From Patescibacteria group bacterium (GTDB lineage: Bacteria > Patescibacteriota > Minisyncoccia > Phycocordibacterales > UBA9973): a stretch of DNA of 64,000 nt. Location of the stretch: NCBI GenBank assembly GCA_040390725.1, contig JAZJXT010000001.1, forward strand, positions 6,896 through 70,895, in the 5' to 3' direction. The position numbers and the translations under genes are program-made. The notes beneath the pieces were generated by a model. The model saw nothing but the letters and a program-made list of their open reading frames with translations, did not search any database and was not told where the DNA came from. The stretch's first letter is position 1; the number at the start of each line of letters is the position of its first letter. Shown here in pieces: positions 44,374-64,000 of the stretch.

Positions 44374-44432
44374 GTTTTTATTATGCTATTGATACATTAC
44401 TATTATATTACTACTGAAAATAAATGCAACCA

Positions 44433-45200: not shown

Positions 45201-45257
45201 GATTATATTGTAGCATTTCTTATATAAAACTAGAAATAAACTAAAATTTATGTTAAG

Positions 45258-46004: not shown

Positions 46005-46014
46005 TAAATAAATT

Positions 46015-46278
46015 TTACTTTTCTATTTCTTTAGTTTCTAAAGTTTTTAAAACATATTTACTGATAAAAACTATTAGCATTGTTAAAATAATTGCGTATA
46101 AAAACTTTGCTGTTATGGAATTTTGATTGAGAGGGAAAAGGTATTCGATCGATGAGCGGATGGCATCATTCCAAGCTAGACCCACCACCAACCCAAGTGC
46201 TGTCAAAATATACCCGAAAGTTTGTCTTTGTATATCTCTATTTACTTTTGCAATTTTTTTGATTACCTCTTCTTTCAT
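46015..46278 (-). CDS. small membrane protein (87 aa)
   Basis: ORF with two hydrophobic helices. Confidence 0.4.
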   Translation of the reverse strand: MKEEVIKKIAKVNRDIQRQTFGYILTALGLVVGLAWNDAIRSSIEYLFPLNQNSITAKFLYAIILTMLIVFISKYVLKTLETKEIEK

Positions 46279-46420
46279 TGGTTTATTATAGCATTTTTAG
46301 TGTTTAATTTTAGTTTGACAAGTAGAATTATTTACATTAGTATGCTGTTTAGATTTATAACCTTTGTTCGGTTAAAAAATCCCGCAAATTCTCGAATTTT
46401 TAACTTTTTAAAACTGAATA

Positions 46421-48040: not shown

Positions 48041-48118
48041 TTGATTTGATACCGTTGTGATTTTCGAAAGGAAACGCACGGTATTTTTTTTTGCCTATTT
48101 ATTTGTTATACTTGCACA

Positions 48119-49267
48119 ATGCACGAAGAGTTATATAAAAAAGCGTTGGAGATGCATGCGAAATATCACGGCAAGATAGAGACTGTGAGCAAAGCAAAGC
48201 TCGATTCTTTGGATACTCTTTCGTGGGCATATACTCCGGGAGTGGCGGAAGTTTGCAGGGAAATAGTTCGTGATCCTAGCCTCGCACGTGAGTATACTTT
48301 GAAAAGAAATACTGTGGCTATCGTTACTGACGGCTCAGCTGTTTTGGGCTTGGGGAATCTTGGCGCTCTTGCATCAATACCGGTGATGGAAGGCAAGGCT
48401 GCTATTTTTAAAGAATTCGCCGGCGTGGACGCATTTCCAATTTGCTTGGATACGCAAGACATAGAAGAAATTATAAAAGCTGTAAAACAAATTGCTCCTG
48501 TTTTCGGCGGGATAAATTTAGAAGATATTTCCGCGCCGAGGTGTTTTGAAATTGAAGAAAGATTGAGGAAGGAATTAAATATTCCCGTAATGCATGATGA
48601 CCAGTGGGGTGCGGCGACTGTCGCCCTCGCGGGGATGATAAATTCTTTAAAACTTTCCGGACTGGAAAAAGAAAATGCACGTGTGGTGATAAATGGCGTC
48701 GGAGCGGCGGGTGTCGCTACTGCGAGATTATTTTTCGCATATGGAGTTAAAAATATTATTTTCTGCGACAGGCATGGCATCATTCACCATGGCGAAGAAG
48801 GGCTGACAATTCAGAAAAAAGAATTATTGGAAAAAAGTTCTTGGGCGCATGAGGCAGGCACATTGGCTGATGCGGTAAAAGGCGCAAATGTTTTCATTGG
48901 CCTTTCTGTGCCGAATGTTTTGACGGGGGAGATGGTGCGCACTATGGCGGACAAGCCGATAATTTTCGCACTTGCAAACCCTACACCTGAAATAATGCCT
49001 GACGAGGCGCGTGAGGCTGGCGCATTTATAGTCGCCACCGGGAGGAGTGATTTCCCGAATCAATTAAATAATTCTCTCGTTTTCCCCGGTGCATTCAAGG
49101 GTATGCTTGAAAATAATATATCGCAATTTAAAACTGAAATGTTTTTGGATATTGCCGAAGCTTTGGCGAACTCTGTTACTGACCTATCTCCGCAGAAAAT
49201 TTTGCCTTCTATGTTTGATAAAGAAGTGGTGAAAATTGTTTCAGAAGTTGTGAAGAAATTTAAATAA
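48119..49267 (+). CDS. NAD(P)-dependent malic enzyme (small form)
   Basis: YTPGVAEVC and VTDGSAVLGLGNLG malic-enzyme motifs, plus the Rossmann GVGAAG. Confidence 0.9.
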   Translation: MHEELYKKALEMHAKYHGKIETVSKAKLDSLDTLSWAYTPGVAEVCREIVRDPSLAREYTLKRNTVAIVTDGSAVLGLGNLGALASIPVMEGKAAIFKEFAGVDAFPICLDTQDIEEIIKAVKQIAPVFGGINLEDISAPRCFEIEERLRKELNIPVMHDDQWGAATVALAGMINSLKLSGLEKENARVVINGVGAAGVATARLFFAYGVKNIIFCDRHGIIHHGEEGLTIQKKELLEKSSWAHEAGTLADAVKGANVFIGLSVPNVLTGEMVRTMADKPIIFALANPTPEIMPDEAREAGAFIVATGRSDFPNQLNNSLVFPGAFKGMLENNISQFKTEMFLDIAEALANSVTDLSPQKILPSMFDKEVVKIVSEVVKKFK

Positions 49268-49444
49268 AATGTGCTGGCGGAAGCGGTGAGAATTTCTCCC
49301 TCGACTAAATTTTTTGTCGTCACAAAAAATTTGTCTGGTCACCGACTCATGGATTTTTTCTATTGAAAAAATCACATTCCGTCGTTCTCATCTCACTCAA
49401 AAGCCAAGCAGTTGGCTTTCTCGCTTCCGCAGTTTTTCACTGCG

Positions 49445-49529
49445 TTTAAAACTGCGGAAGCGGTGAGATTCGAACTCACGGTCCGGTTAGGGACGACGGT
49501 TTAGTAAACCGTTGATTTAAGCCACTCAT
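49445..49529 (-). tRNA. type II (long variable arm) Ser-like tRNA; anticodon loop reads UUACUAA (anticodon ACU if canonical)
   Basis: Folded by hand: acceptor GGAAGCG/CGCTTCC, discriminator G, 3-bp D stem, anticodon stem ACGGT/ACCGT, 16-nt variable arm, T arm GTGAG-TTCGAAT-CTCAC. No CCA is encoded. Confidence 0.65.
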
Positions 49530-49934
49530 CCACGCTTCCAATATACAGTTGTCAGGATTCCGCGGATGAGTGGCTCTCTCGCTTTGCTCGCGGGTGAAAG
49601 CAAAGTAGTTTGCTTTCACCCCATCTCATCCACGCTTCCAATACTTAATTTTTTTCGGATTTTTAAACTTAAAAATCCGATTGCGGGACACTCGAGTTAA
49701 GTACCCACGCGTTCAACTACCGTAAGGGTATTCTAGCATATTTTATGGTGGCAAAACTAGGCACTCGGGTCGCTAGGCGGTTTTTCAAAATGAGACAAAT
49801 GAGACACTAAATGTGTTTTTTGTGTTTGTGTCTCATTTTTGTCTAGGCAAAAACTTACCCACTTAATTATTTGACTATAATATCTTTTATTTGTTATCAT
49901 TAAACTATTATAATTTTAAAAAAAGTTAATAATC

Positions 49935-50137
49935 TCCTCCCAGAGTCGATTTAGGGACCATCTTCATTAAGACCGGAGGTGCGCTATCAGGGGTCGGGGA
50001 TCCCTGCCAGGTAGGTATCATTGGGAAGCTACCATTTCATCTTACATTCAATTGATCAATCAATCCATGTAGGTTGCGATGGTAGCATTCTAGAGCTTCT
50101 TCGCAAACTGCAATTCGTAAGAGTGCAGTTTTTTTTA
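49935..50137 (+). ncRNA. Candidate structured small RNA, GC-rich for this genome, ending in a hairpin plus T8 terminator
   Basis: Stems cctcc/ggagg, caggg/ccctg, gctaccat/atggtagc; terminal ctgca...tgcag followed by tttttttt at 50108-50137. Confidence 0.25.
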
Positions 50138-50159
50138 TTACTAATTTTCTAATAAATGT

Positions 50160-51485
50160 ATGAAACATGAAAACATAAAAATTGTTGAAGTTCCAATCAA
50201 TGAACTTCGAGAGTCGGAATATAATCCTCGCCAGCATTCCAAAGAGCAGAGTGACCAGCTCAAAGAATCAATTAAAAGATTTGGTCTAGTCGATCCCATA
50301 ATATGCAATGATGCGTCAGGTCGTGAGAATGTAATTATCGGCGGACATTTCAGAGCTGAAGTGGCGAAAGAAATGGGCATGGCAACTGTGCCGGTGGTGT
50401 ATGTAAAAGTTGAAGAGTTAGAAAAAGAAAAAGAGTTAAACATTCGTCTTAATAAAAACCAAGGTGAATTTGACCTAGATCTTTTGGCTAGTTTTGATGA
50501 ATCTTTTTTGTCTGATATTGGATTCGATTCAGAAGAAATTGATGAAATTTTTTTAGAAGATGCAATCGAAGAGCAGTTTGATTTAACCAAAGAGTTAGAC
50601 AAACTAGACATTAAAAGTATTTCGGTAAAGAAAGGAGATGTCTATGAAATTAATGGGTCGAGGTTGTGCTGTGGGGATTCAACCATTGAGGCAGACGTAC
50701 TAAGGTTAATGGGAGAAGAAAAAGCAGACATGGTATTTACTGATCCACCATATATTCTCGACTATCTTCACGGAAAAACAAGGAAAGGAAAAGCTACTGA
50801 AGGTTTTGGTTCAAAAAAGAACAGAAGGTATCTTGAAACAGAATCTCTGCCTGATAATTTTACAGATCTTTGGATGGCTAATGTTGCCAAAGTTCAGAAA
50901 CCCGATTTCTCTATTATTGTTTTTGAGAATCCAAAAAATCTTAGAATTATTTGGAATGAGTTAGAAAAATATTGGAAATACAGAAATACAATTACATGGC
51001 ATGTTCCAAACCGTGTCCAAGGATTTTCAGCAAAATATAAATTGTTTAATAAACATGATATTGCTGTGGTTGGAACTGGCGGAAATGTTGCATTAAACCT
51101 TGAGGAAGAAGATGAGTTGTTTCAAAATGAATATGAAAATGCCATTCTTGCAACGTCGGGCAAGCCACATTGGGAAGGTTATGGAAAAAATAAAAAATAT
51201 TGCCCAACTGATTTTATAGAACACATTGCCGCTGATGAAAAAAGTTCAGGTCAAGGGATTATTTTTGGAACTAAACCGTTAGAACTACTTATTCCGTACA
51301 TTAAGGTGTTAACAAAGAGAAATGACTTAATTTTGGAGCCATTTGGTGGATCCGGAAGTACTTTAATTGCAAGCATTAAAATGGGTCGAAGGTGTTTTCT
51401 GATGGAAAAATCGACTGTATATACTCAGGTTATTCTGAAACGCTGGGAGAAAGAAACTAATCAAAAAGCGATAAAAATAAAATGA
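50160..51485 (+). CDS. ParB-like nuclease domain fused to a DNA methyltransferase (N4-C/N6-A class, DPPY motif); no restriction endonuclease is evident nearby
   Basis: N-terminal IIGGHFRAEVA (ParB/Srx) motif; FTDPPYIL motif IV; C-terminal AdoMet-binding EPFGGSGST. Confidence 0.8.
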   Translation: MKHENIKIVEVPINELRESEYNPRQHSKEQSDQLKESIKRFGLVDPIICNDASGRENVIIGGHFRAEVAKEMGMATVPVVYVKVEELEKEKELNIRLNKNQGEFDLDLLASFDESFLSDIGFDSEEIDEIFLEDAIEEQFDLTKELDKLDIKSISVKKGDVYEINGSRLCCGDSTIEADVLRLMGEEKADMVFTDPPYILDYLHGKTRKGKATEGFGSKKNRRYLETESLPDNFTDLWMANVAKVQKPDFSIIVFENPKNLRIIWNELEKYWKYRNTITWHVPNRVQGFSAKYKLFNKHDIAVVGTGGNVALNLEEEDELFQNEYENAILATSGKPHWEGYGKNKKYCPTDFIEHIAADEKSSGQGIIFGTKPLELLIPYIKVLTKRNDLILEPFGGSGSTLIASIKMGRRCFLMEKSTVYTQVILKRWEKETNQKAIKIK

Positions 51486-51946
51486 GAGATATAGAAGACA
51501 AAAAGAGACTCATAGAAATACTTTCTGAGGTTCCATATATTATATATGCTTGCAAAAAAATTGGTATTGCAAGAGCCACTTTTTACCGTTGGTGCTCGGA
51601 AGATGAAGACTTTCACCAAGCTGTTTTAAAGGCTATGAAGTATAGCAGACAGGATGAATCAGAAAAGATAGAAATGAAAATGGCAAAAAGAGCCAAAGAA
51701 GGAGATTTTAATTCTGGAAAATTTTTCCTTGAACATAATGATGACAGATATAGGAAATACAAGCCAGAAAGAAATCCATATGATTTTGACCCGGTGCCTC
51801 TTTTAGAGTATTGTATTCCATACTTGGAATTTATGTTTGGACCGAATTTTGATCACAGTGCGATGCTTAAAAAAATTGAAACGATTGATATATCAGATCC
51901 AGAAGATAATCCGTCAAAGAAAAGCCTAAGATATGAAGTAAAGTAA
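51482..51946 (+). CDS. HTH protein resembling a phage terminase small subunit N-terminus
   Basis: ACKKIGIARATFYRWCSED HTH; overlaps the methyltransferase stop by 4 nt. Confidence 0.45.
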   Translation: MRDIEDKKRLIEILSEVPYIIYACKKIGIARATFYRWCSEDEDFHQAVLKAMKYSRQDESEKIEMKMAKRAKEGDFNSGKFFLEHNDDRYRKYKPERNPYDFDPVPLLEYCIPYLEFMFGPNFDHSAMLKKIETIDISDPEDNPSKKSLRYEVK

Positions 51947-51953
51947 AATATCT

Positions 51954-52646
51954 TTAATTGTTGCCAACTTTTCTAATTAGGTCAGCAATTTCGTAAGAAT
52001 CTTTAATGGCTTGCTGGTCTTTTTTAGAGAGGGTTATATCTTTTAATCCTGACCCACCAGTAAATCTGACTTTAATAATTGCGTCACCGCTTTCCGCAAT
52101 AGCTTTTATTATTCCATTATCTCTACCATTTGTATAAAGAATTTTTTCCCATACACTACCGCTTCCATTGTTCTCAAGGTTATTAGGATCAGATATTGAA
52201 ATATTTTCGGTTTCATAAACAGTGTCACCAATTTTAACTTGAACTCTAGTATGGAAAATCCAATCTTCACCAAAGTAATTACTTTCAAGGCATAAATTAC
52301 CGTCTGACCCTACTGTCACTGATAAATAATTTCTGTTATATGAGTTATCTGTTGTTTGATTTTTATGTATATACAAACCATCTTTTTCAAATTCATCATA
52401 GTCATAGTTGAAATTTCTTTTTAGGATTTCAAGTCTTTCCTTGTATGCTTTTAAAGTTGCAGGATCTAGTGGAGCAGAGTGTTGTAGAATTTTATTTTCA
52501 CTCAATGTCTGATTTCTTAGAGATATGGTTTTACGAATTATAGGTACGAGAATGAATATGAATAAAATAATTATAATTATGTAATATTTCTTTAAAAAGT
52601 TTTTCATTTTAGTTTTTTTGTTCGATACGTTTATTTTTTCGACCAA
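51954..52646 (-). CDS. hypothetical membrane-anchored protein (230 aa)
   Basis: ORF with an N-terminal transmembrane helix. Confidence 0.5.
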   Translation of the reverse strand: MVEKINVSNKKTKMKNFLKKYYIIIIILFIFILVPIIRKTISLRNQTLSENKILQHSAPLDPATLKAYKERLEILKRNFNYDYDEFEKDGLYIHKNQTTDNSYNRNYLSVTVGSDGNLCLESNYFGEDWIFHTRVQVKIGDTVYETENISISDPNNLENNGSGSVWEKILYTNGRDNGIIKAIAESGDAIIKVRFTGGSGLKDITLSKKDQQAIKDSYEIADLIRKVGNN

Positions 52647-52803
52647 GATAAACTAATACATATGCTCCTTCAATTATCATAGGCAAACCTACGAGCAATG
52701 CTTGACCCATTTCTTTGCCATTACTTTCTGTTAAAAGCGGAAGTGATTCCAAAACCCCTATAATTAATATTAAGATAGACCAGACCTGTAAAAATCTTTT
52801 CAT
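52609..52803 (-). CDS. small membrane protein (about 65 aa; the ORF-track N-terminal extension was rejected)
   Basis: MKRFLQVWSILILIIGVL transmembrane helix. The upstream part of the track ORF overlaps a hairpin-rich intergenic region. Confidence 0.35.
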   Translation of the reverse strand: MKRFLQVWSILILIIGVLESLPLLTESNGKEMGQALLVGLPMIIEGAYVLVYLGRKNKRIEQKN

Positions 52804-53132
52804 ATTTTTTCTATTGCGTTTTATTAGTAAGCCCTTGAGTAGGACGCAAAAAGCCCACCACAGGTAGAGACCGAAGTCTCTCGTATCCGTTTCCAGATAC
52901 GGCGTATGAAGCACCCCATGATGGGTTCTTTATGCTTCATACGACTTTTGACCATATCCTTTGGAAATCCAAAGGGGTTAGGTCTTCTATTAATTTGTCT
53001 AATAATTCTAGCACATTTTTAGTGCTTTTGGCATCCTAGCTTAGATCAAAGGATTTGTGTAGTCGAGTTATCAACAGTTAGTAAATACAAGTAAACTCAC
53101 TTTAATTGTAATTTTTATTATATAATTTAAAT

Positions 53133-53576
53133 ATGATAATCAGATTATTAAAAAAGAAAGATATAAAAAGCGCATCTGTTATTGCTCGATTAAATTATTC
53201 CAAAAAAGAAGAAAAGCTTGCAAAGATAGAGTTAAAAGAAATGTTTACAAAAGGACCATTTCGACCTGTATTTTATGTTGCCGAAGAACAAGGAAAAATA
53301 TTTGGCTTTGCCGGATATGCTCAAGCGTGGATGGAATACAGTGTATATCAAATCTTTTGGGTGAATGTTGCTCCCAACGAAAAAGGTAAAGGCGTAGGCA
53401 AAGCTCTTATATCAAAAGTCATTACTGAAATAAAAAAGAAGAAAAATGCAGACTTGATTTTAATCAGTGCCGACGAAAATGCAAAAAATCACGAATACTA
53501 CAAAAAGCATTTCGGATTTAAAACTTTGGATTTATTTAACAAAAAAAGATATCATTTGATGTCGCTTAAGGTTTAA
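53133..53576 (+). CDS. GNAT-family N-acetyltransferase
   Basis: FWVNVAPNEKGKGVGKALI acetyl-CoA-binding motif. Confidence 0.75.
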   Translation: MIIRLLKKKDIKSASVIARLNYSKKEEKLAKIELKEMFTKGPFRPVFYVAEEQGKIFGFAGYAQAWMEYSVYQIFWVNVAPNEKGKGVGKALISKVITEIKKKKNADLILISADENAKNHEYYKKHFGFKTLDLFNKKRYHLMSLKV

Positions 53577-53611
53577 TTACAAATACCTATTAATTATGCT
53601 ATTATCTTAAT

Positions 53612-55105
53612 ATGAAAGAATGGGCGCCACAGCTTAAATACCGAAAGGAAGACACAGAACCAAAGCCTAACTTCGGCGTGCTAGCTTCCCCGGAGGGGGG
53701 GGCAACAATAAAGAATTTGAAGGAGAAAAATGAAGCGCTGGAAGCTCTTATTAAGGAAGCTATTGTGAAACTTATACCCATACTTGAAAAACATAATCCT
53801 GATAAATTTGGTACTGGATTTATTACTAAATACTTAAGGTATAATTATAATAAGCTAGTAAAAAATCTTCCTGGGAATAAGGAAAATAAAACGGACTGGA
53901 TGCCATTTGACAGTCAGTTGCCAAAGAAATGGCAAGAAAGGTTTTATCTTCCGGAAAAAAGGTTAAAATTTTTTGCGGCTAAAATTGTTTCAATTTTAGA
54001 AAAAGAAAAGCCAGAATTTTTTACTCCGGGTTCAATAAAAAAAATGGATCCAAGTATCTATATGATATTGACACAGATGCTACCGAGGGATGAAGAAGAT
54101 AATATTGACTATAAACCCTTTGAAGAAGAATTACCGGAGGAATGGAAAAACAAATTTGAATATGGGAATATTTCTTTTCCGTATGTTGTCTTGAAATTTG
54201 TTTTATTACTTGAAAAAGAAAAACCTGAAGAGTTTAATGTGACTTATATAAGAGATTACGCACCTGACATTTATGGCATGCTAGATCGGATTTTGCCAAA
54301 AAATCAAAAAGGTGAGCCTGATTGGTTATACTTTAAAAGCCAATTGCCGGAAAAATGGCAAGAAAGGTTTACATATGAGGAAAAAAAACGTTTATCTTTC
54401 GAAGAATGTGTTTCAAAAGTAGTTGAAAAGTTAAACGAAAAAAAGCCGGAGCAATTTGGACCTATTTGGATTAAAGAAAATTGCGGGGATATTGTATATA
54501 ATGAACTGCGTAGAATTTTACCAAGAAAGGATAACCAAGATGACCAAATTGATTGGCAACCCTTTCTTGATAAGTTACCTAAGGAGTGGCTAGCAAAGTG
54601 GAAACATAAAAAAGATCCATATTACAAGCATCTAAAAGAGTTCCCGAGTAAGAAAGAATTAAGGCAGATATTATTAAAATACAAAAATTATGGAGATGCA
54701 CATGAAAATAAACTTTATGTTTTGCCTTATTATCCGAATCTTTCAAAAGATGACAGGATAATTGCCAATAAAATTGTAGGGGAAATAATAAAGTTGGCAC
54801 AGAAAGGCAGTAGTGCCGCACGAGAAATGCTCGAGTTAGACTTAAATTTTGTCTGTGAGGAATGGATACAAAAATACCCCGGATACCCTTTTGAATTGAA
54901 GCCGTGGAAGGATAAACCGGAACAGTTAAAGAAACTTATACGGGGCTGTATTTATAATTATCAGAATAAGGGATCATTCTTTTCATACTTGTTTACGGCT
55001 TTAAAAATGGGCAGACCAACTTCAATTAAAATGGTAGAATTTGATGAGGGCTACATGAAAAAATTAAATGATTCAATGATGGAAGGGTTTGAGGATCAGT
55101 TATAA
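53612..55105 (+). CDS. hypothetical protein with 3.5 tandem roughly 70-aa repeats (DWxPFxxxLPxxWxxxF...LEKEKPExF)
   Basis: The repeats are visible in the translation. A G8 homopolymer lies at 53695-53702 near the 5' end. Confidence 0.6.
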   Translation: MKEWAPQLKYRKEDTEPKPNFGVLASPEGGATIKNLKEKNEALEALIKEAIVKLIPILEKHNPDKFGTGFITKYLRYNYNKLVKNLPGNKENKTDWMPFDSQLPKKWQERFYLPEKRLKFFAAKIVSILEKEKPEFFTPGSIKKMDPSIYMILTQMLPRDEEDNIDYKPFEEELPEEWKNKFEYGNISFPYVVLKFVLLLEKEKPEEFNVTYIRDYAPDIYGMLDRILPKNQKGEPDWLYFKSQLPEKWQERFTYEEKKRLSFEECVSKVVEKLNEKKPEQFGPIWIKENCGDIVYNELRRILPRKDNQDDQIDWQPFLDKLPKEWLAKWKHKKDPYYKHLKEFPSKKELRQILLKYKNYGDAHENKLYVLPYYPNLSKDDRIIANKIVGEIIKLAQKGSSAAREMLELDLNFVCEEWIQKYPGYPFELKPWKDKPEQLKKLIRGCIYNYQNKGSFFSYLFTALKMGRPTSIKMVEFDEGYMKKLNDSMMEGFEDQL

Positions 55106-55116
55106 GATTTATTATT

Positions 55117-56208
55117 TTATTTCCCCTTAAGTTTTAAAACCAAAACCCCCGCTAAAACCCCAGCCACAGCACAAGACAAAATCGCAATAAGAATTTCGTT
55201 AGTTGTAAATACAAAATTCGGATGAACTAAATATGATGCCCCGACATAGAAAATAACAGCCGAGAGAATGCCCATTATCAAACCTTTAATAACTAAATTA
55301 AATTTTGGAATAGTTTCGACTACGATTGCCGGCAGAATGTAGGAGAAAAGGAAAAGCCAAAATGGAGGATTAAAGAATTCATTTATCATTACTCCCGGAG
55401 CAGGGTGAATGAGGGTAGCCGGACCGACGGAAGAAATGAAAGCGTAAAAGATTGTCGTTAAAAGAATTGATTCTGATTTTTTCTTTTGTTGTCCTAAATA
55501 CAGCATCACGGCAATCCAGGCAAATACTACTATTCCCGCTCCCCAGAATCCCATTACTCTGTATGCCCCCAAAGGGAAAAATGGCAAAGTAAAAATGAGA
55601 ATGTATCCTAAGAATGTCGCCCAAAGTCCGCAATCCAAAAGCCAATCAACAGTATGGTCAGAGCCGAGTTTAGCTATTTTTCTAGAAAATAAAGTCAGGG
55701 TAATAAGTGAGCCGAGGATTAAAAGATGCGGAGGCGACCAGACTACGATAGGGCTTAGTAAGTTCTCAGTGCCGAAAACAGAGTGCCAAGCTTGGTCCAA
55801 GACTCCGGTGATAGGAAAAAGCAAACTCACCCAAAAGGCATTTCTGTATATTTTATTTTTCGTTTTTCTCCAAGCTACAAATGAACATATTATGACGACA
55901 CTAAGACAAAGATACAAAGCAGTATGCGGAGGAATAAAAAATTGATCCCTGCCTATGGCCACATGCCACCAAGCATCCCACAATAATGCCGTAGCCATGC
56001 AAATGCTCATAAAGGGAATAAGTCGTGTGTAAATTTTGTTGTGCATAGGGGAATTATAGCAAGAAATGCTAGAGATTAGTAAGAGTTGAATGTACCCAAA
56101 AAAAGCTTGACAAATAGGTATTAAATGTGCTATACTTTCATTGGTCTTTGTTCGTTGAAAAATATTGATTTTTAAGAGGTGAATTGAAAAGTTGTTATAT
56201 AAAAACAT
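55117..56208 (-). CDS. hypothetical polytopic membrane protein (363 aa)
   Basis: About ten predicted transmembrane helices. Confidence 0.55.
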   Translation of the reverse strand: MFLYNNFSIHLLKINIFQRTKTNESIAHLIPICQAFFGYIQLLLISSISCYNSPMHNKIYTRLIPFMSICMATALLWDAWWHVAIGRDQFFIPPHTALYLCLSVVIICSFVAWRKTKNKIYRNAFWVSLLFPITGVLDQAWHSVFGTENLLSPIVVWSPPHLLILGSLITLTLFSRKIAKLGSDHTVDWLLDCGLWATFLGYILIFTLPFFPLGAYRVMGFWGAGIVVFAWIAVMLYLGQQKKKSESILLTTIFYAFISSVGPATLIHPAPGVMINEFFNPPFWLFLFSYILPAIVVETIPKFNLVIKGLIMGILSAVIFYVGASYLVHPNFVFTTNEILIAILSCAVAGVLAGVLVLKLKGK

Positions 56209-56211
56209 ACT

Positions 56212-56724
56212 TTGTATAATAGCTTTTCAATTTTTCTCACTATTAATCATTTATTTAAACTCAGTATTATGAACTTTTTATCTTCAATCTCGAAAGTTTC
56301 GCATTTTTCTGTAAAAAATGGCGTTGGACAAGTTTTATGCTTTGTCGCTACATTTATAGCTGGCTTTGCATTTGCAAACAATATAATGGAGAAAGAGATA
56401 GTTTCTCCAAGCGACAGATTGTTTTTCTTTCTTATTGCCATATTTGTTTTTGGAATAGGTATGATAGTAAGATACAAGGCCTATTTTTGGCCAAACAAGT
56501 TGTTGGGTGAAAATATGATTCACGGCTCTGGATTTTTTTTGGGGATTTGGTATTTAGGTACATTAATGAGTACCACTTCCTTCTCACCAGTCGAGCAGTT
56601 GGTAGAAACAATGCCCGATGATTTTCTGTGGATGATGGCAGGAATGTCATTTGCCCTTGGAGTTATTTTTCGCATTCTTGGGCGTAAACCCAAGATAGCG
56701 AAGACGTGTCTCGAAATTGGGTAA
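56212..56724 (+). CDS. hypothetical membrane protein (170 aa)
   Basis: ORF with four hydrophobic helices. Confidence 0.45.
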   Translation: MYNSFSIFLTINHLFKLSIMNFLSSISKVSHFSVKNGVGQVLCFVATFIAGFAFANNIMEKEIVSPSDRLFFFLIAIFVFGIGMIVRYKAYFWPNKLLGENMIHGSGFFLGIWYLGTLMSTTSFSPVEQLVETMPDDFLWMMAGMSFALGVIFRILGRKPKIAKTCLEIG

Positions 56725-56843
56725 CCCACTAACCTTAATAGTGGAAAAAAGAATCGATTGCACGGCTTTATGTCTGCTCTCGATTCTTTTTAATTTTGGC
56801 AGGTAAATTTATCCATACTAAGGCGAATCTATTTTGTAAAAGG

Positions 56844-57596
56844 TTATACTATTAAAAATACATCAATAGCTAAATGATCCGAAATCCTATCGGGAAGTAA
56901 TTTACAGTTTACTTTTAAATTTTGTGTTATAAATTTATTTACATAAATATGGTCAGTTTTTAATTTCACAGATATTCCTATTGACGCAAAAAAGTTTGCA
57001 ATTTTTGTTATAAAAAATGGTGTTTGTTCGGTATATCTACTGTCGAGAGTAGGACCTAATGTTTTGTTAATTCTTGAAAATTCCGGAGAAAGTATTTTTT
57101 CTTGGTTAGTAATTTCAAAAGGAAATCCAGTATTGAAGTCCCCGCCGATAACTATAGGATTATTTAAATTTTCTTCTAAAATTTTTGCTTTTATAATTTC
57201 CAACTGCTTTAATCGTTTGTGCGGTCTTAGCCCCGGGTGCAGGTGAATTGTACTTATAAATATTACCTCATTGTCTTTTGTAAATTTTCCACCAACAAAA
57301 CCCCAACCTCTGCGTGGCGAGTCAGTATTTAATATTGCAAATGACAAAAAAGTATCGTCAGTTAAAACAAATTCTTTTTTGTATAAAATACACACACCTG
57401 TATTTTCTCCTAAATTAGAATCGTAAGAGTTAAGTATTTTATAATTTTGAGAAGCGTTTTTTATTAAAACAATAATTTGTTCCGTTATCTCTTGTAAAAG
57501 TAAAAAATCATATTTTTCTTCTTTTAAAATATGAATAATAAAGTTTTCAAAATTTGGTTGGTATGCTTTTTGGCAATTGAGGGTGAAAATTTTCAT
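56844..57596 (-). CDS. endonuclease/exonuclease/phosphatase (EEP) family protein
   Basis: N-terminal LLLQE, GGDFNTG, and C-terminal SDHLAI motifs. Confidence 0.7.
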   Translation of the reverse strand: MKIFTLNCQKAYQPNFENFIIHILKEEKYDFLLLQEITEQIIVLIKNASQNYKILNSYDSNLGENTGVCILYKKEFVLTDDTFLSFAILNTDSPRRGWGFVGGKFTKDNEVIFISTIHLHPGLRPHKRLKQLEIIKAKILEENLNNPIVIGGDFNTGFPFEITNQEKILSPEFSRINKTLGPTLDSRYTEQTPFFITKIANFFASIGISVKLKTDHIYVNKFITQNLKVNCKLLPDRISDHLAIDVFLIV

Positions 57597-57599
57597 TTT

Positions 57600-58394
57600 T
57601 TAATTAGAAACTTCTTTTGAAGTAAAATACTGATAAACATAAATAAAAGCTGGCACGCCAAATAGTATCCACGATAACTCTTCTATGGGAAAACTAAGAT
57701 CTCCAATATGGACCATTCCCAAATACTGACTACCGAGAAATCCCCATTGATGTGTTGCTAACGCGGAAAGTTCTATGATAAAAAGCATCATGCTGAACGG
57801 TAAACATTGTAGCCAAAGCTTACAAAAGCGCTTAGCTGATTTAAGAAGTCCAATAATGGTGGGTGTACAGAAGAAGATAAGAACAAACCATAGATAAAAA
57901 TACGGAATTGTTAGTAATTTACTGTTTGTGTAAAGTATGAAAATTTCAACAAAAAGAACGGTGAATAAAATAATTACAAATTTATTAAATCGAGGTAGAA
58001 TTTTTATTTGCAAATTTTGTTCAGTAAAAAAGTAATTATATAAAGACACAATTAAATATACATAGACAACTGCCCATATAACTGTTTCAAACGGAATTAA
58101 ATTAAAAATTCGTCTAGGAAAAACAGATGTCTCCCACCAGGCATTATTAAACAAAGCGAGACTGTCAGTCAAAAGAACAAATGGTAAACCCGTAAGCAAT
58201 GCGAACTTTGCGGTGGATTTAAATAAACTAGGACGACGAAATGTTATGTAAATTGAGGGAACCAAAAAATAAAGACCGGTAGAAATTAAATAATTCAGTT
58301 TAAAAGTAATAGTAAAGTAAGCAATAATAGCTGTATAAATGACTACTCCAATCAGCTCAATTATTTTTTTATTAGACCTAGGTATTGGAAACAT
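57600..58394 (-). CDS. hypothetical integral membrane protein (264 aa)
   Basis: Seven or eight transmembrane helices; family uncertain. Confidence 0.5.
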   Translation of the reverse strand: MFPIPRSNKKIIELIGVVIYTAIIAYFTITFKLNYLISTGLYFLVPSIYITFRRPSLFKSTAKFALLTGLPFVLLTDSLALFNNAWWETSVFPRRIFNLIPFETVIWAVVYVYLIVSLYNYFFTEQNLQIKILPRFNKFVIILFTVLFVEIFILYTNSKLLTIPYFYLWFVLIFFCTPTIIGLLKSAKRFCKLWLQCLPFSMMLFIIELSALATHQWGFLGSQYLGMVHIGDLSFPIEELSWILFGVPAFIYVYQYFTSKEVSN

Positions 58395-58483
58395 ATTTTT
58401 ATGATAGCCTATAAAAGTAATGAATTCAAGCTATAGTCTTAGATTAGATAAAAAGATTTGTGCAGTTGAGTTACAATAGTTTT

Positions 58484-59044
58484 TTACCTGCTTAAATATC
58501 TTCTTATAATTCTTTCTTTTGATTCTTGTTGCTTTGTTTTAGTTAGCATCTTTTCCCAGTCCCAAATCTTTCCACTGGGACCAAAAGCTTTGAGATAATA
58601 TTCAAGATAAATTTTAGGATTTATAAAAATAACATCATCTATTTTTTTCCAACCCAAAGCCATTTTATAATCATAGCCAATTCTGTGACCAATTGATCCT
58701 ATCCATTGATGAGCAAGAACGTTTCTCCAGTCGTGGATTGACTTGGCAATGGTGGAAAACTTAGTATCAGCAGTATCACCATCAACAAACTTTTTAAGAA
58801 ATAACTTATATCCTTTTAAACTAGTTTTATTAAACAATCCTTCAGAAATAGTAAGTGCCACCGAATGGACACCAAGAAACAGTAAAGACGTCTGATAGTT
58901 ATCTTGTTGAGCTGTTAGGGTAATTTCATTATTAAAGAAATTTGCTATTGAGTTAAGTAGGGTTGCAATAATTTCATATGGTGGACCGTTCTGAAATCTT
59001 TCTAGGCGTTTTTCTTTTGTTTCTCCGTGGGAATTATTTTTCAT
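58484..59044 (-). CDS. HEPN-like protein (186 aa), a candidate toxin or defence component
   Basis: DWRNVLAHQ matches the HEPN Rx4-6H motif (R-N-xxx-H form). The size fits HEPN domains. Forms an operon with 59056-60666. Confidence 0.5.
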   Translation of the reverse strand: MKNNSHGETKEKRLERFQNGPPYEIIATLLNSIANFFNNEITLTAQQDNYQTSLLFLGVHSVALTISEGLFNKTSLKGYKLFLKKFVDGDTADTKFSTIAKSIHDWRNVLAHQWIGSIGHRIGYDYKMALGWKKIDDVIFINPKIYLEYYLKAFGPSGKIWDWEKMLTKTKQQESKERIIRRYLSR

Positions 59045-59055
59045 TTCATTTAAAA

Positions 59056-60666
59056 TTAAAGTAGGTTTTCTTTCTTAGGAAGAAAACGACTTTCCATCGT
59101 ATTAAGTACTTGGATGCATTTTATGAGAATATCTTCAAAAACTACCCAAAGGTCTTTACTATCTATGTCAAAGAATTTTTTAATCTTTTCATAATTACTA
59201 CCTTTTAGATGAGCAACGCTTGTCGAACGCAAAGTTTGTAGGTTTCTAAAAAATTCAATCATTTTAGGCGCAGAAAATCCATGAGCCATAGAAAAAGCTT
59301 CAAACTTATCTATGCCTTTAGGATTAACTTTACTAATGGTTAACCCTTTTTTAAGTTCTTTTTCGTTGAGTGAGTCGATCATAATTTTTGTTATTGATGC
59401 TACCTGATCATCAAACTCTTTTTGCTCATTTGTCGTCGGAACATGAAGTGATTTCATGTGATGCGTATCACCAATAGATAGCGGTTTAAATAGATACCAT
59501 CCAAATTGTTTATTCCATGCCTCTTGAAAAATTTCAAATTTCTCTTTGAAATAAAGTTCTGGATGTTCAGAGTCTGCAAAATTACCTTCAATATTTCGTG
59601 TAAAATCTGCATGACTAATTTTTCTCCTACTTGGAGTGAGGTTAAAAGCTTTCCAGTGAGTCTGTTCCTTGTATGGCAAGGATTTTAAGTCTCCCAACCA
59701 TATTACCACGTGATCCCTATGATTAATCATAGCCCTTAAGCCCCAGAAACCTTCAAATTTTATATATCCATCTTCAACAGAATATTTACCTGGATTATCA
59801 TAGTATTTTTTGAGTACCTCTCGCTTAAAAAAGACTGGTGTTAGAAAACCAGGACTGGACTGATAATCAGTATTACAACTATAATTAACTTCTTTTCCAT
59901 TTTCATCTACTCCAATTATAAATTCTTCAAACTTTTCATCAGCTCTCGTTTGCCAAATAGTTGGATTAAAGTCTTTTAGTCCTGCAATCAATTTTTTACC
60001 AAGCAACCATCCCTGAGATTTATTATCACCTAAATTAAGACTTCGAATGCATAGTGAATAGGTATAATTATCTCCCTTTTTAATTTCGTCGATTTTTTGC
60101 TGATTTAATTCCTCGAGTGTTTTGTCTAAAAATCTCATGGCTTCAAAATAAATTGCGAGATGCATTTGTTTTGCTGATAAAAACTCTTTTATAAATTTTA
60201 ATTTGATTTCTACCTTATTCTTACTAATTTGAACAACTTCGTCTTCATCTCCATAGTCGTTAGTATAAGTAAATATTTTTTTATCATCGATGATTTTTTC
60301 AAAGAGATTAAAATACAACCGAAATTCTTCTGAGACCTCAAGACAGGCTTTTTCTTTACCACTAAATGATCTCCAATATACTAATGACTCTATACCTTCA
60401 TCGGAAAAACGATAATATTCAGTTTTTGATTTCCCCGCCAGATAGTGGGTCATAAAACCTGGACGTCCTCCATCGATTCGTAAATCCCAGTCGTATTTTT
60501 CCAAAACCTCTTTTACTTTATTATCAGCTATCAGTGCAGAAAAATAGGTACCCCTATCAATGTCAACGGAATCTAAAAATTCAAAAACTGTGACCCATTC
60601 CGTTTTTCCTAGATCACCTTCAATGTTTTTTATTAAATCGGTAAATTTTAAATCTTTTGTATTCAT
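59056..60666 (-). CDS. hypothetical protein (536 aa) with a C-terminal HEPN-like Rx5H motif
   Basis: C-terminal LRSTSVAHLKG; no other recognisable motif. A 12-nt gap separates it from the downstream HEPN-like gene. Confidence 0.5.
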   Translation of the reverse strand: MNTKDLKFTDLIKNIEGDLGKTEWVTVFEFLDSVDIDRGTYFSALIADNKVKEVLEKYDWDLRIDGGRPGFMTHYLAGKSKTEYYRFSDEGIESLVYWRSFSGKEKACLEVSEEFRLYFNLFEKIIDDKKIFTYTNDYGDEDEVVQISKNKVEIKLKFIKEFLSAKQMHLAIYFEAMRFLDKTLEELNQQKIDEIKKGDNYTYSLCIRSLNLGDNKSQGWLLGKKLIAGLKDFNPTIWQTRADEKFEEFIIGVDENGKEVNYSCNTDYQSSPGFLTPVFFKREVLKKYYDNPGKYSVEDGYIKFEGFWGLRAMINHRDHVVIWLGDLKSLPYKEQTHWKAFNLTPSRRKISHADFTRNIEGNFADSEHPELYFKEKFEIFQEAWNKQFGWYLFKPLSIGDTHHMKSLHVPTTNEQKEFDDQVASITKIMIDSLNEKELKKGLTISKVNPKGIDKFEAFSMAHGFSAPKMIEFFRNLQTLRSTSVAHLKGSNYEKIKKFFDIDSKDLWVVFEDILIKCIQVLNTMESRFLPKKENLL

Positions 60667-60791
60667 TCTATATTTTTATAATAGCATTTTTTGCTAGAAA
60701 ATAAAGAGTTTTTTATGAATATTAGTTACCAACACTCTACCAACTGGGTCGCACTAGACTCCTGGAGCAAGTTGCGTCATTCATTAGGTAT

Positions 60792-62114
60792 ATGAATAAC
60801 ACAATATCAATACCAATTGGGACAATGGTAAAAGAAGTAGTCCCCGTAAGAGTAAAGTACTGTTTGTATGCAAGAAAATCAACGGAATCGGAAGAACGCC
60901 AAGTCCTATCAATCGATAGCCAAATAAAGGAAATGTTGCAGATGGCAGAAAGAGAAGGGCTTGAGATTGTAACAATGAAAAGAGAAAGTCACTCCGCCAA
61001 AGAAACAGGACAGCGACCAATCTTTAATGAAATAATAGAAGAACTAAGGCAAGAGAAATTTAACGGAATACTAACTTGGGCACCGGATAGAATAAGTAGA
61101 AATGCAGGCGACCTTGGTAAAATAGTAGATTTGATGGATTCAGGAAAACTTCATGAGATACGAACTTTTGGACAAAGATTTACAAACAGTCCAAGTGAAA
61201 AATTCTTGTTAATGATTTTAGGAAGTCAGGCAAAACTTGAAAATGACAACCGAGGAATAAATGTAAAAAGAGGATTACGCACACGAGCCGAGATGGGGCT
61301 ATGGGCAGGAATGGCACCATTGGGATATTTAAATCAAAATCGAATGGACAAGAAGTGTCAGGTAATAATTGATCCATTAAGAGGTCCGGTAATTAAAAGA
61401 ATGTTTGAAAAAGTCGCATATGAAAAGTATTCAGGAAGAAGGATATATAACTGGTTAAAATTTGAATTGAATTTTTACACAAGAGGAAATAAACCACTTA
61501 CCCTGAGTGGAATATACCGACTACTGGAAAACCCTTTTTACTACGGAGTGTTTGAAAAACCATTAAAGAGTGGAAATTGGTATCAAGGTAAACACGAACC
61601 TCTAATAACTCAAGAATTATTTGAAAAATCCAAAGCACAACTGAAGAGAGACAACATACAAAGAGAAAACAAAGAATTTGCATTTACCAAATTATTCACT
61701 TGTGGGTACTGCGGAAGTGGAATATCCGCAGAAGAAAAATGGAAACAACTTAAGAACGGAACAGATGCAAGATATATTTACTATTCTTGTAGTAGGGCAA
61801 GAGATAGGAATTGTAAAAACAAATATATACGAGAAGAAGAATTAATAACTGAATTGCTTAAAATTATAGACAAGGTAAATATTAATGAGCTTGGAATGAG
61901 GCAAAAACTCGAAGATGAAATTGCACGATTTAATATTTTTCAAAGGTCAGTATTGGGCAGTACGGATAAAATTAAAAATAATCAGGAGACGGACATACGA
62001 AATTATGCTAAATATATTCTCAAAGAAGGTTCGACGAGTGAGAAAAGAGAATTGCTTGGGAATTTGAGGAGTAGGATAGTTTATAAGGATAAGATACTTA
62101 CATTACTAAATTAA
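60792..62114 (+). CDS. large serine recombinase (resolvase/invertase catalytic domain + recombinase domain + zinc ribbon)
   Basis: YARKSTESEE...SIDSQ catalytic Ser region, and a C-terminal CGYCGS...C zinc ribbon. Confidence 0.85.
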   Translation: MNNTISIPIGTMVKEVVPVRVKYCLYARKSTESEERQVLSIDSQIKEMLQMAEREGLEIVTMKRESHSAKETGQRPIFNEIIEELRQEKFNGILTWAPDRISRNAGDLGKIVDLMDSGKLHEIRTFGQRFTNSPSEKFLLMILGSQAKLENDNRGINVKRGLRTRAEMGLWAGMAPLGYLNQNRMDKKCQVIIDPLRGPVIKRMFEKVAYEKYSGRRIYNWLKFELNFYTRGNKPLTLSGIYRLLENPFYYGVFEKPLKSGNWYQGKHEPLITQELFEKSKAQLKRDNIQRENKEFAFTKLFTCGYCGSGISAEEKWKQLKNGTDARYIYYSCSRARDRNCKNKYIREEELITELLKIIDKVNINELGMRQKLEDEIARFNIFQRSVLGSTDKIKNNQETDIRNYAKYILKEGSTSEKRELLGNLRSRIVYKDKILTLLN

Positions 62115-63352
62115 GAATATTTGTTTTTATATTTATACTTTTTCTTTTGTAAATTTAAATGATATTGGTGAAATTTATCGTCGTCCTTTTCTGGATCTAA
62201 GCTCATTGCTTGAAATGACCTTCCTCTTCTGTGTGGACCAAATAAATGAGCAAATTCACCCTTGAACCAATTAAGAGTTCTATGCTCACTGTAAGTATTT
62301 GTTTCTTTGTTATAATCTGGATCTTCAGGTACTCTTCCGTATTCATCCATTGATCCTCCTGGTCCAGGCCCACCACCCCAGAATATTTCTCCTCCCAGGT
62401 GTATGGGGCGAGGGTCAGGCATTAATAAATAACCTTCACCGTATTTATTCCAATTTGATTTTGAAACATATTTTTCTGGATATAACCAATCTTTTTTTGC
62501 TCCAGCAATATGACGGAAAGCCCTATTTTTTATAATGAAATTTATTTCACGTACCTCTTGCTCATTTAAATGACGCATAGTTTGTATATCAGTAAATTTA
62601 AAAATTGCGTTGCGAAATAAGTTTGAATTTGGTCGAGGCTTAGTAGCGGATTGATATGGGTTTCGTACCCATGAAAGATTTGTAAGTATTAGTATCTTGT
62701 CTAAAGACAAAGGAAATATAGTATGACTACCTTGAAGAAATATATCAGGATCATTCGCATTTCGACATTGCTGGGACCTTGGTCCGCATTCACGATTATA
62801 TATAGTTATTGGATGGTCAGAAATAATAAATTTGGTTTCTGAATTAGAAGCATCAGCAATTAACCATACTGATTCGGTCCATATTGCACAATTCATTCTT
62901 CCAAGTGTTGTCATTGATGACAGTATATTATATTTATTATCAGTATTTAACTTGTCTTTAAGCCACGTCAAACCTTTTGGGGTTCTTAACTTTTGAGTAC
63001 TCATATAGATCATAATATCCTCAAAGTACGTTTTCCAGTCTTTGAGTGGATAAGCAAATTTTTCAAAATATTCCACAGCTTCTTGTCCTTTTCGGTCTAT
63101 TTTTCCGAAAAAGTATTTTTCAATATCTTTAGATTCAATAGACTGAATTTTTGTTGTATATAAATCCTTTTCCACAAAACATTTTTTAGATCCTTGTTTT
63201 ATAAGGGCTTTACTGTGGTACGGTATTTTATCAGGACTCATGAAAGTATTTGGTTTCATATCTAAGTAAAAAAGTTCCGACTCACTGGGTAACATAAACT
63301 TTTTTTGGTACCATTGAGGCACATAATGATGATTTTTATATTCTTCAGGCAT
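62111..63352 (-). CDS. hypothetical protein, DUF4238-like (N-terminal HHYVPQWY motif)
   Basis: The N-terminal motif resembles DUF4238, recalled from memory and unverified; convergent with the recombinase and overlapping its stop by 4 nt. Confidence 0.5.
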   Translation of the reverse strand: MPEEYKNHHYVPQWYQKKFMLPSESELFYLDMKPNTFMSPDKIPYHSKALIKQGSKKCFVEKDLYTTKIQSIESKDIEKYFFGKIDRKGQEAVEYFEKFAYPLKDWKTYFEDIMIYMSTQKLRTPKGLTWLKDKLNTDNKYNILSSMTTLGRMNCAIWTESVWLIADASNSETKFIISDHPITIYNRECGPRSQQCRNANDPDIFLQGSHTIFPLSLDKILILTNLSWVRNPYQSATKPRPNSNLFRNAIFKFTDIQTMRHLNEQEVREINFIIKNRAFRHIAGAKKDWLYPEKYVSKSNWNKYGEGYLLMPDPRPIHLGGEIFWGGGPGPGGSMDEYGRVPEDPDYNKETNTYSEHRTLNWFKGEFAHLFGPHRRGRSFQAMSLDPEKDDDKFHQYHLNLQKKKYKYKNKYS

Positions 63353-63422
63353 TAACCTAATTTAGCATGATTTATAGAAAATGTTTATAAAATATTCTTT
63401 AACAGTATGGTATATTTAATCA

Positions 63423-64000
63423 ATGAAATATATATTTATTGGTTTTCTTGGGTGGCCAGAACCCGCAATGAAACAAGACGAAAGAATCTATGAAATAGAT
63501 AATGGCTTTGAATGTTGGAATTTGACTAAATTTTCTGCTACAGAATTTGTAGAAGCTATAAAAATTAAGATACCACCTTTTAATGATAATATTCTCAGAA
63601 ATTATATAAATAATGGAAAAGATTTTTATGGAATAAGTGAGGAGCAGTACGGTAAATGTCTTTGGGGTATTTTAGTTCCAGACCCAGATGAATTTTTTGT
63701 TGTGTATAAAGAAGTACTTTCTATTTTAAATCTTTTTTCAACAAAATATATGCATCCTGCTTTTTTTATTACAAACACAGGGATAAATAAAGGGGAAGAG
63801 TTTAATCAAAATTATGTTTTACCGAACGATTATCAAGGCTACGAATATTTTAAAACTTTAAGTTTTGTTTCTTTCTTTAAGACCATGGCTGATCAAATGA
63901 AGTACTTTGCTTGGGTTAGAAATAGAGTTACAAGTTGGGGAAAAGAAGACTGGCGACTATTTATGGCTTGTGGTTTTTATGAAGGGTTAGAAGAATACGA
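63423..64000 (+). CDS. hypothetical protein, 5' portion (runs off the window end)
   Basis: Open frame from ATG 63423 to the window end with no stop (hand-translated MKYIFIGFLGWPEP...). Absent from the ORF track because it is truncated. Confidence 0.4.
   Translation, partial: MKYIFIGFLGWPEPAMKQDERIYEIDNGFECWNLTKFSATEFVEAIKIKIPPFNDNILRNYINNGKDFYGISEEQYGKCLWGILVPDPDEFFVVYKEVLSILNLFSTKYMHPAFFITNTGINKGEEFNQNYVLPNDYQGYEYFKTLSFVSFFKTMADQMKYFAWVRNRVTSWGKEDWRLFMACGFYEGLEEY

Follow-up and report, generated by a model that had tools for sequence, protein, structure and literature searches.

We examined a 64,000-nt segment of a Patescibacteria chromosome of Paceibacteria-like character (hereafter, the window), the right-hand end of which carries a gene for a large serine recombinase (LSR) among mobile-element-like functions. 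Window positions ~49.68-64.0 kb, together with adjoining sequence on to ~64.58 kb outside the window, probably constitute one genomic island of a Patescibacteria-wide family integrated at the 3' ends of tRNA-Ser genes. The case for insertion, built on sequence comparison, rests on the absence of the island near the malic enzyme gene of relatives, on its deviating GC content, and on the recurrence of the same architecture in dozens of genomes. An initial annotation of the window had placed an integrated element next to a tRNA gene, between positions 49531 and 63352, with the LSR at its distal end. An integrated, LSR-bearing and tRNA-linked element is indeed what we found; however, the anchoring tRNA-Ser is located at ~64577 rather than at 49.5 kb, position 63352 is no boundary, and the LSR is internal to the island, with a DUF4238 gene and a gene for a 356-aa protein between it and the tRNA.

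Genes were annotated with Pfam, NCBIfam, PADLOC and PHROG profiles, RNAs with ARAGORN and Rfam, and DNA sites with an nhmmer profile and a covariance model (R1). Two Logan contigs from sample SRR26324628 were 100% identical to window positions 41885-49312 and 56008-64000, the second of which (L082) runs 616 nt past the window end; exact-sequence matches to the LSR, malic enzyme and DUF4238 genes were confined to short Logan contigs of this one sample. For comparison, we took 80 metagenome and five IMG/VR loci containing the LSR, with 83 dereplicated LSR loci used for tRNA counts, as well as a second set of relatives chosen via their malic enzyme (including L004, L011, L012, L013, L032, and L043).

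The LSR gene (60792-62114, plus strand) encodes a resolvase domain with the nucleophilic serine (PF00239, E = 3.6e-20), C-terminal to which lie Recombinase (PF07508, E = 5e-12) and Zn_ribbon_recom (PF13408, E = 1e-9) domains, the latter with its CxxC...C...C cysteines present in the translation. The closest solved structure was that of SPbeta SprA/YokA (E = 2e-10, residues 26-381), the YARKS motif aligning with YLRRS of SprA. Homologues retrieved by protein search numbered in the thousands; the top 120 showed 83-100% identity and originated from many Patescibacteria sources. Among the relatives, amino-acid identity was 78-92% and nucleotide identity between LSR loci 72-79%, with homology covering the coding sequence plus 40-95 nt upstream and ending at the stop codon. 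Nonsynonymous divergence (dN) was 0.08-0.26, synonymous divergence (dS) was saturated, and their ratio (omega) was below ~0.03, a pattern that speaks for very strong purifying selection on a gene whose window copy is apparently intact. In L140, the LSR was 82% identical to that of the window, compared with 61% for RecG. Saturated dS, low dN and an identity above that of RecG mark the LSR as an old, strongly constrained gene rather than one that has been spreading recently.

The position of this gene relative to tRNA genes was highly regular. A downstream tRNA was present in 57 of the 83 dereplicated loci, and in 53 of these 57 the first one was a tRNA-Ser on the opposite strand, its 3' end facing the LSR at a distance of 103-8752 nt (median 1645). 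All five isoacceptors were represented among the 53 (GCT 27, TGA 11, GGA 6, ACT 5, CGA 4). Not a single tRNA gene was found in 426 kb upstream of the LSR, as opposed to 81 in 363 kb downstream. For the genome of the window, contig L082 ends in TGGCGGAGACGGACGGATTCGAACCGTCGAGGGGTTTTGAA, the 3' part of a minus-strand tRNA-Ser beginning at window-equivalent position ~64577; its last 35 nt differ by one mismatch from the tRNA-Ser(GCT) of L109, and the segment closely resembles that of L004. The anchoring tRNA of the window island is thus probably a tRNA-Ser(GCT) situated ~0.58 kb past the window end. The metagenome contigs themselves (L093-L172) tended to end where the LSR gene starts or stops, or shortly past the tRNA-Ser, and bore a long flank either upstream or downstream, seldom on both sides; 16 LSR-locus contigs stopped no more than 60 nt past the downstream tRNA-Ser. 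Such breakage is expected if co-occurring populations share the LSR and the tRNA while differing in their flanks.

Directly after the CCA end of the tRNA stands a conserved motif of 40-65 bp, which we call the T site. Its short form, AGACAATTTAGTATCGGAGTGACCCGAGTACCTAAAT, is an imperfect palindrome; the extended form carries, between TATCGGAGTCAAC and TGCGACCCGAGT, a hairpin of ~20 nt whose sequence varies and in which six of the seven pairs covary, given a structure supplied by hand and with covariation confined to this central hairpin, while RNAalifold returned no consensus structure for the extended sites. The TATCGG core of the T site abutted 59 of 70 tRNA-Ser genes in LSR loci, versus 3 of 26 in the loci selected by malic enzyme. 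Covariance model R1 recovered 62 T sites. The 61 in LSR-selected loci were without exception downstream of the LSR and on the same strand as the tRNA; the remaining one abuts a tRNA-Ser(ACT) in L011, which lacks the LSR. A few R1 sites abut tRNA-Asp or tRNA-Ala, and additional internal T sites were present in L109, L128, L133, and L136. Neither nhmmer nor R1 detected a T site inside the window; that of the window genome lies just beyond it (L082 8531-8569, equivalent to 64538-64576), so that T site and tRNA 3' end together occupy L082 8531-8609, or ~64538-64616 in window terms.

The opposite, distal end of the island is marked by a different element, a block of ~125 nt located at 49681-49807 (plus strand) in the window (alignment A2). 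An nhmmer profile found it in 13 loci, including the window copy at E = 1.8e-28; it delimits the distal end in the window, L139, L157, L132, L138, L167, L165, and L032, and also occurs in L123, L107, L177, L004, and L011. Read on the tRNA strand, the block resembles the 3' half of a tRNA, with a pseudo T-arm GGGTACTTAACCC (GGG-TACTTAA-CCC) and an acceptor-like GCGGG. The most complete picture was provided by L139, an entire island of ~13.2 kb with direct repeats at both ends, each consisting of a T site and 21 nt of the tRNA-Ser(GCT) 3' end. Its order is host gene, short T site with the 21-nt tRNA end, block, two methyltransferases, small (TerS) and large (TerL) terminase genes, cargo, LSR, more cargo, extended T site, and the full tRNA. 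The window shows the conserved distal block and a half-site only. In other loci, the distance from block to T site ranged from ~4 to 13 kb, and by the same yardstick the window island extends from 49681 to ~64576, or ~14.9 kb. Tandem junctions, in which a T site runs straight into a block, were present in L107 and in L123, where TGGCGGAGA forms the link; we considered L123 as a possible circle and, there being no terminal overlap between its ends, read it as a tandem junction. In L004 and L011, mini-islands without the LSR have both ends ~1.1 kb apart at tRNA-Ser(ACT).

A third conserved element is the ~95-nt leader of the LSR gene ('L site', 60698-60791, plus strand), which reads GTTACCAAC..TACCAACTGGGTCGC..CTAGACTCC..GTTGCGTCATTCATTAGGTAT ATG in the window. 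Its consensus is a palindrome, TACCTACTYGGGACGC-N22-GCGTCATTCATTAGGTA, that runs into the ribosome-binding site and start codon. Leader, T site and block share an arm, TA(SS)TACTYGGGWCRC, in the same orientation, a similarity of 12-16 nt seen in comparisons of consensus sequences only; in the block of the window, it is found as CACTCGGGTCGC at 49762-49773. We did not adopt the leader as a T-site homologue, as the T-site covariance model failed to detect it and this short arm was all that the consensus sequences had in common. It may serve as an operator, a third recombination site or a translational control element. Block, short T site and leader folded no better than shuffled sequence, and we therefore treat them as DNA sites and not as RNAs.

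In composition and context, the region stands apart from the rest of the window. GC content was 33.4% across 49540-64000 versus 38.5% across 1-49453, and lay below that of every equal-size window to the left (minimum 36.9%), in keeping with the visual impression of AT-richness recorded in the initial annotation, the region being the lowest in the window. The malic enzyme that precedes it is at most ~76% identical to malic enzymes of Patescibacteria metagenome-assembled genomes in GTDB. Related genomes were compared as the annotation had proposed. L004 is the closest of them by RecG (77%; malic enzyme 76%); only 6 nt separate its malic enzyme gene from a minus-strand tRNA-Ser(GCT), beyond which lies a plus-strand tRNA-Ser(ACT), and the two tRNA genes also lie side by side in L011, L013, L043, and L141. 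Within 10 kb of the malic enzyme, these relatives contained no island genes apart from an EEP homologue (51% identity) directly 3' of tRNA-Ser(ACT) in L012 and, in L032, a ParB-methyltransferase/TerS pair that has a block of its own and sits on the opposite side of the malic enzyme. The relatives share only ~75% malic-enzyme identity and do not amount to a strain-level empty site.

The tRNA-Ser(ACT) gene that neighbours the distal end (49454-49539, minus strand; ARAGORN and Rfam) has its 5' side directed towards the island and lacks a T site at the 3' end, and we read it as a flank of that end, not as the integration target. A search of 48-64 kb for the predicted att-like direct repeats between 49.5 kb and 62-63.4 kb came up empty; all it returned was a 19-nt duplication of the tRNA 5' end at a spacing of 100 nt. 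This duplication (49625-49643), an exact copy of the first 15 nt of tRNA-Ser(ACT) plus four, terminates a 100-nt hairpin unit (49544-49643, minus strand; direct repeat D20) immediately 5' of the tRNA, which folds at -43 kcal/mol (z = -6.0) with the repeated tRNA segment paired to an anti-sequence. At the homologous place, L043 has exactly 100 N (3205-3304) alongside a 15-nt repeat of its own tRNA 5' end. The junction zone as a whole (49272-49680) is full of tRNA fragments, including a 16-nt copy of the tRNA-Ser(ACT) 3' end at 49276-49291 and, at 49556-49575, the 5' part of the same tRNA in inverted form. Between the malic enzyme and tRNA-Ser(ACT), at 49272-49453 (minus strand), lies a hairpin-rich stretch of 163 nt that begins with the same acceptor 5' strand and finishes with a copy of the tRNA 3' end (GCGGAAGCGGTGAGA, 49276-49290) and CCA. 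It may represent a pseudo-tRNA or a scar left by an earlier island; inside it, at 49312, Logan contig L001 breaks off, and L116 has a comparable insert of ~150 nt between tRNA-Ser(ACT) and the T site. The tRNA-Ser(ACT) gene itself, with A34, is conserved in the window, L004, L011, L012, L013, L043, L098, L116, L121, L125, L130, L134, L136, and L141, where it usually adjoins tRNA-Ser(GCT). A34 is unusual in bacteria except in tRNA-Arg, and tRNA-Ser(GCT) already decodes AGY codons.

Across the family, genes follow a recurrent order: block, DNA methyltransferase, TerS, sometimes TerL, LOOT RNA, variable cargo, leader with LSR, more cargo, T site, and tRNA. In the window, the ParB_N and N6_N4 DNA methyltransferase (50160-51485, plus strand; Pfam, PADLOC and PHROGs) had, as first described, no partner endonuclease: no restriction-endonuclease family was detected among the neighbouring genes. 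It is followed by a TerS-like helix-turn-helix protein (51482-51946, plus strand) that matched five PHROG small-terminase families (E down to 6e-7) and scored below the Pfam cut-off. In 17 loci a methyltransferase gene precedes the LSR in the same orientation, and the TerS-like gene (cluster 3) does so in 15, always directly after the methyltransferase, the module sitting -3 to -10.6 kb from the LSR. In a compact form of the island (L083, L103, L105, L156, L162, L173, L175), ParB-methyltransferase, TerS, TerL, a ~100-nt leader and the LSR follow one another, and L164 shares this order, with a TerL that is longer and of the Terminase_6C type. TerL is missing from the window copy, in which TerS and the LSR stand ~8.8 kb apart. 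None of ten proteins from the region matched capsid, portal, tail or large-terminase families in PHROGs or Pfam, the genes by which a prophage would be recognised. The ParB-methyltransferase, the TerS-like gene and the LSR belong to the family backbone and are not incidental cargo.

Two non-coding features accompany this module. Upstream of the methyltransferase operon, a GC-richer stretch at 49925-50140 (plus strand) without an Rfam match folds better than any of 200 shuffles (z = -3.96) and ends in a terminator-like hairpin and T-run, making it a candidate small RNA or leader. Downstream of TerS, a LOOT RNA (RF03000; 52866-52984, minus strand) scored 89 bits (gathering score 46.4) over model positions 1-121. 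Six of eight related islands scanned also had one (L083 6245-6365, L115 3222-3348, L128 6335-6455, L135 4051-4174, L164 5312-5427, L168 4428-4552), all six with a ParB-type methyltransferase. In every case, a gene on the minus strand followed 50-220 nt 3' of it and encoded a protein that is secreted or anchored in the membrane (SNase, OB-fold tRNA_anti-like, or of no assigned family), which in the window is a 230-aa membrane-anchored protein (51954-52646, minus strand) called as an open reading frame. Rfam classes LOOT as a small RNA gene; its constant place 5' of such genes suggests that it may be a cis-acting leader and not a free small RNA. Just outside the compact island of L083, an S-adenosylmethionine riboswitch (RF00162, 67 bits; 5130-5240, minus strand) was found upstream of genes for 137-aa and 261-aa proteins.

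Cargo occupies two slots, one ahead of the LSR leader and the other from the LSR stop codon to the T site. In the window, the first contains a GNAT acetyltransferase (53133-53576, plus strand; Pfam), a singleton in cross-locus clustering; a 497-aa protein (53612-55105, plus strand; repeats D1 and D3) of ~142-aa repeats (426-nt period, 70-75% nucleotide identity) that matches no family and has relatives (cluster 9) on either side of the LSR in seven loci; two divergent genes for membrane proteins of 363 aa (minus strand) and 170 aa (plus strand) without a family match (55117-56724); and, at 56844-58394 on the minus strand, an EEP nuclease/phosphatase (56844-57596; Pfam) with a 264-aa membrane protein. 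Profile searches thus bore out the TerS-like, GNAT and EEP calls of the initial annotation, and several of its small membrane proteins or proteins of no assigned function were found. Adjacent to and divergent from the LSR are genes for proteins of 186 aa (58484-59044) and 536 aa (59056-60666), both on the minus strand; their reading as a HEPN-like pair gained no match in Pfam, NCBIfam, PADLOC or PHROG, only Rx4-6H motifs being visible by eye. A 53%-identical homologue of the 186-aa protein lies beside a Hypoth_Ymh gene in L084. This pair fills a slot that holds defence systems in other islands, namely type I restriction-modification in at least ten loci and Hachiman in L089, while L090 has unannotated genes there and a CBASS-like SMODS/SAVED pair (cyclic-oligonucleotide-based antiphage signalling) further upstream, past its methyltransferase module. 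In the second slot, genes often overlap the LSR stop codon. It holds, in the window, the DUF4238 gene (62111-63352, minus strand; Pfam), which converges on the LSR with a 4-nt overlap as annotated, and the 5' part of the 356-aa gene (63423-64000, plus strand), cut by the window end and followed by the T site and tRNA-Ser. DUF4238 genes occur here in four loci (also L129, L159, and L166) and 356-aa homologues in five, directly following the LSR in L124, L136, L143, and L144; other loci have other genes.

Elsewhere, the window codes for EF-Tu, FtsH, RecG, type IV pilus genes and a 3121-aa protein. The last is a single open reading frame (19629-28994, plus strand) adjoining a tRNA-Ile(TAT) gene (19374-19448, minus strand) that is conserved in L004 (1403-1477) and L012 (2889-2963). 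In most bacteria, AUA is read by a lysidine-modified CAT tRNA rather than by tRNA-Ile(TAT).

These features can be joined in a model in which the LSR would integrate a circular form of the island, with the acceptor/3' end of tRNA-Ser as the target. The attP would be a block joined to a T site via a ~9-nt copy of the tRNA 3' terminus (TGGCGGAGA), as at the tandem junctions, and a candidate attP can be written as the last ~60 nt of the T site, TGGCGGAGAT, and the first ~60 nt of the block. Repeated integration at one site would produce tandem arrays and derivatives without the LSR. More speculatively, complete members might be packaged by their own TerS and TerL into helper-phage capsids, in the manner of satellites, as the phage-type methyltransferase-TerS-TerL module suggests; the window copy, having lost TerL and gained ~8.8 kb of cargo, would probably be packaging-defective. 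Genes for capsid, portal or replication did not turn up, so that support for the satellite idea is weak.

Several further observations weigh against integration of the island at a tRNA-Ser 3' end. The anchoring tRNA lies outside the window and is seen only as a 41-nt contig end, its anticodon being assigned by similarity. The distal junction carries neither a T site nor a tRNA-Ser(GCT) 3' fragment, to which the window had no matches at all. The order and orientation of the tRNA genes in the window (malic enzyme, tRNA-Ser(ACT) on the minus strand, island, tRNA-Ser(GCT) on the minus strand) are unlike those in relatives, so that a tandem GCT-ACT ancestor or one inversion of an L043-like arrangement has to be assumed. 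Neither an excised circle nor a true empty site was seen in any near-identical strain, and a metagenome scan for such strains with a lineage-specific 539-aa neighbour protein gave no match. In L083 (18053-19975), the essential alaS gene and other apparent host genes are located between the LSR and the T site-tRNA-Ser pair: either the LSR-to-tRNA slot can be very large, or a rearrangement has parted the LSR from its site. Finally, T site and block together far exceed a canonical LSR att site, attP and attB usually measuring ~40-50 bp with a 2-bp crossover, and the variable hairpin of the extended T site is unusual among LSR sites.

We weighed three other explanations. The one that comes nearest, although we regard it as a distinctly minority possibility, is a host-maintained cassette platform akin to integrons or staphylococcal cassette chromosome (SCC) elements, where a long-resident, vertically inherited LSR swaps cassettes at a tRNA-Ser-linked site and the 15 kb is an accreted array. 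A conservation of the LSR that exceeds that of host core genes (82% versus 61% for RecG in L140), with saturated dS and omega < 0.03, agrees with this, as does a conserved unit consisting of leader and coding sequence only, with variable genes abutting or overlapping both edges. The common arm of block, leader and T site in one orientation, the internal T sites, mini-islands and tandem junctions, and the conserved arms and covarying central hairpin of the extended T site, which recall attC, fit in as well. If so, the LSR would be a phylum-wide recombinase running cassette exchange at Patescibacteria tRNA-Ser genes, with block, leader and T site used to capture, stack and swap cargo of defence and other kinds, and with LOOT and the phage-derived methyltransferase/terminase as fixed accessories, in a serine-recombinase counterpart of integron or SCC logic among ultra-small bacteria. 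Most cargo genes, however, have no individual flanking sites, the leader escapes the T-site covariance model, and block and T site fold no better than shuffles.

Less probable still is a decayed, non-functional prophage, of which the methyltransferase/TerS pair and the integrase would be the remains after integration of a temperate phage at the tRNA, with deletions and unrelated insertions accounting for everything else. The window has indeed neither TerL nor any structural gene, the TerL of related loci is ~40% identical to that of viral contigs of 30-35 kb, and five related loci are listed as viral in IMG/VR. Yet over 15 divergent loci repeat the architecture free of structural genes, the compact version having the LSR right behind TerL, and the strong conservation of LSR, leader, T site and block is contrary to neutral decay. 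The boundaries originally drawn, of an element at tRNA-Ser(ACT) ending with the LSR and DUF4238 at 63.35 kb, draw on the adjacent tRNA and on the change in gene content and GC at that point, and we consider them very unlikely to be correct: the island is on the 5' side of this tRNA, neither a T site nor a repeat ties the two ends together, the tRNA 3' end faces the LSR in 53 loci, and the 356-aa gene past DUF4238 is linked to the LSR in four other loci and succeeded by the T site. The integration of a discrete island at the 3' end of tRNA-Ser remains our preferred reading.

Patescibacteria have tiny genomes and few described mobile elements, and are mostly uncultured. Our search of the literature on Patescibacteria and the candidate phyla radiation for serine recombinases, terminases or tRNA integration found no account of this island family, which is apparently both widespread and undescribed. 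Through a single conserved family with type I restriction-modification, Hachiman, CBASS and other cargo, much of the gene flux and phage defence of this large group would take one main route. To our knowledge, serine integrases that target tRNA genes are rare; an LSR that accepts five tRNA-Ser isoacceptors and retains 80-90% identity across deep lineages would supply a defined candidate attP/attB pair of possible use in genome engineering. In addition, the orphan LOOT RNA gains a genomic home. What goes beyond the routine here is the serine integrase, with tRNA-Ser as its probable target, and its extreme conservation, the large structured end elements, the fixed LOOT and packaging module, and the two defence-rich cargo slots.

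Among known systems, the nearest analogues are SCC elements, tycheposons and satellites of the phage-inducible chromosomal island (PICI) and P4 types. Integrons are set apart by their tyrosine recombinase IntI, attI and attC-flanked cassettes, in place of which the island has a serine recombinase, and it does not classify as one. Within the recombinase family, SprA (YokA) of SPbeta has the same domain organisation over residues 26-381, with the catalytic serine aligned; identity is low (E = 2e-10), SprA targets spsM and not a tRNA, and no SprB-like directionality factor was identified in the island. PICI/P4-like satellites similarly combine an integrase and packaging genes without capsid genes, and carry variable defence cargo by the backbone. 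They differ in that no regulator, replication or capsid-redirecting genes were identified here and no helper phage is known; moreover, the integrase is an LSR, and TerL, found in the compact relatives, is unusual for classical PICIs, the window itself having only the integrase and the TerS-like gene. In Prochlorococcus and other marine bacteria, tycheposons have tRNA genes as anchors, tRNA-Ser among them, and a minority carry a large serine recombinase, while 910 of 937 use tyrosine recombinases and many code for replication genes (bioRxiv 10.1101/2020.12.28.424599). Like the islands described here, they are modular, either cargo-carrying or PICI-like with terS, have partial tRNA copies at their ends and form tandem arrays; in our family, by contrast, the LSR is a universal component of extreme conservation, a replication module did not come to light, and the end elements are of another kind. 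SCC elements (SCCmec; CcrA/B/C) resemble the island family in site-specific, LSR-mediated entry into a single conserved housekeeping gene at its 3' end, in variable cargo and tandem accretion, and in recombinase-less derivatives (pseudo-SCC), and CcrB is the best NCBIfam match of the LSR (E = 2.6e-36, 125 bits against a cut-off of 900). The island is nevertheless not an SCC element, as its probable target is tRNA-Ser instead of rlmH, its single LSR is only distantly related to Ccr, and its hosts are Patescibacteria rather than staphylococci; the methyltransferase/TerS/TerL module, the LOOT RNA and the large conserved end elements are its own.

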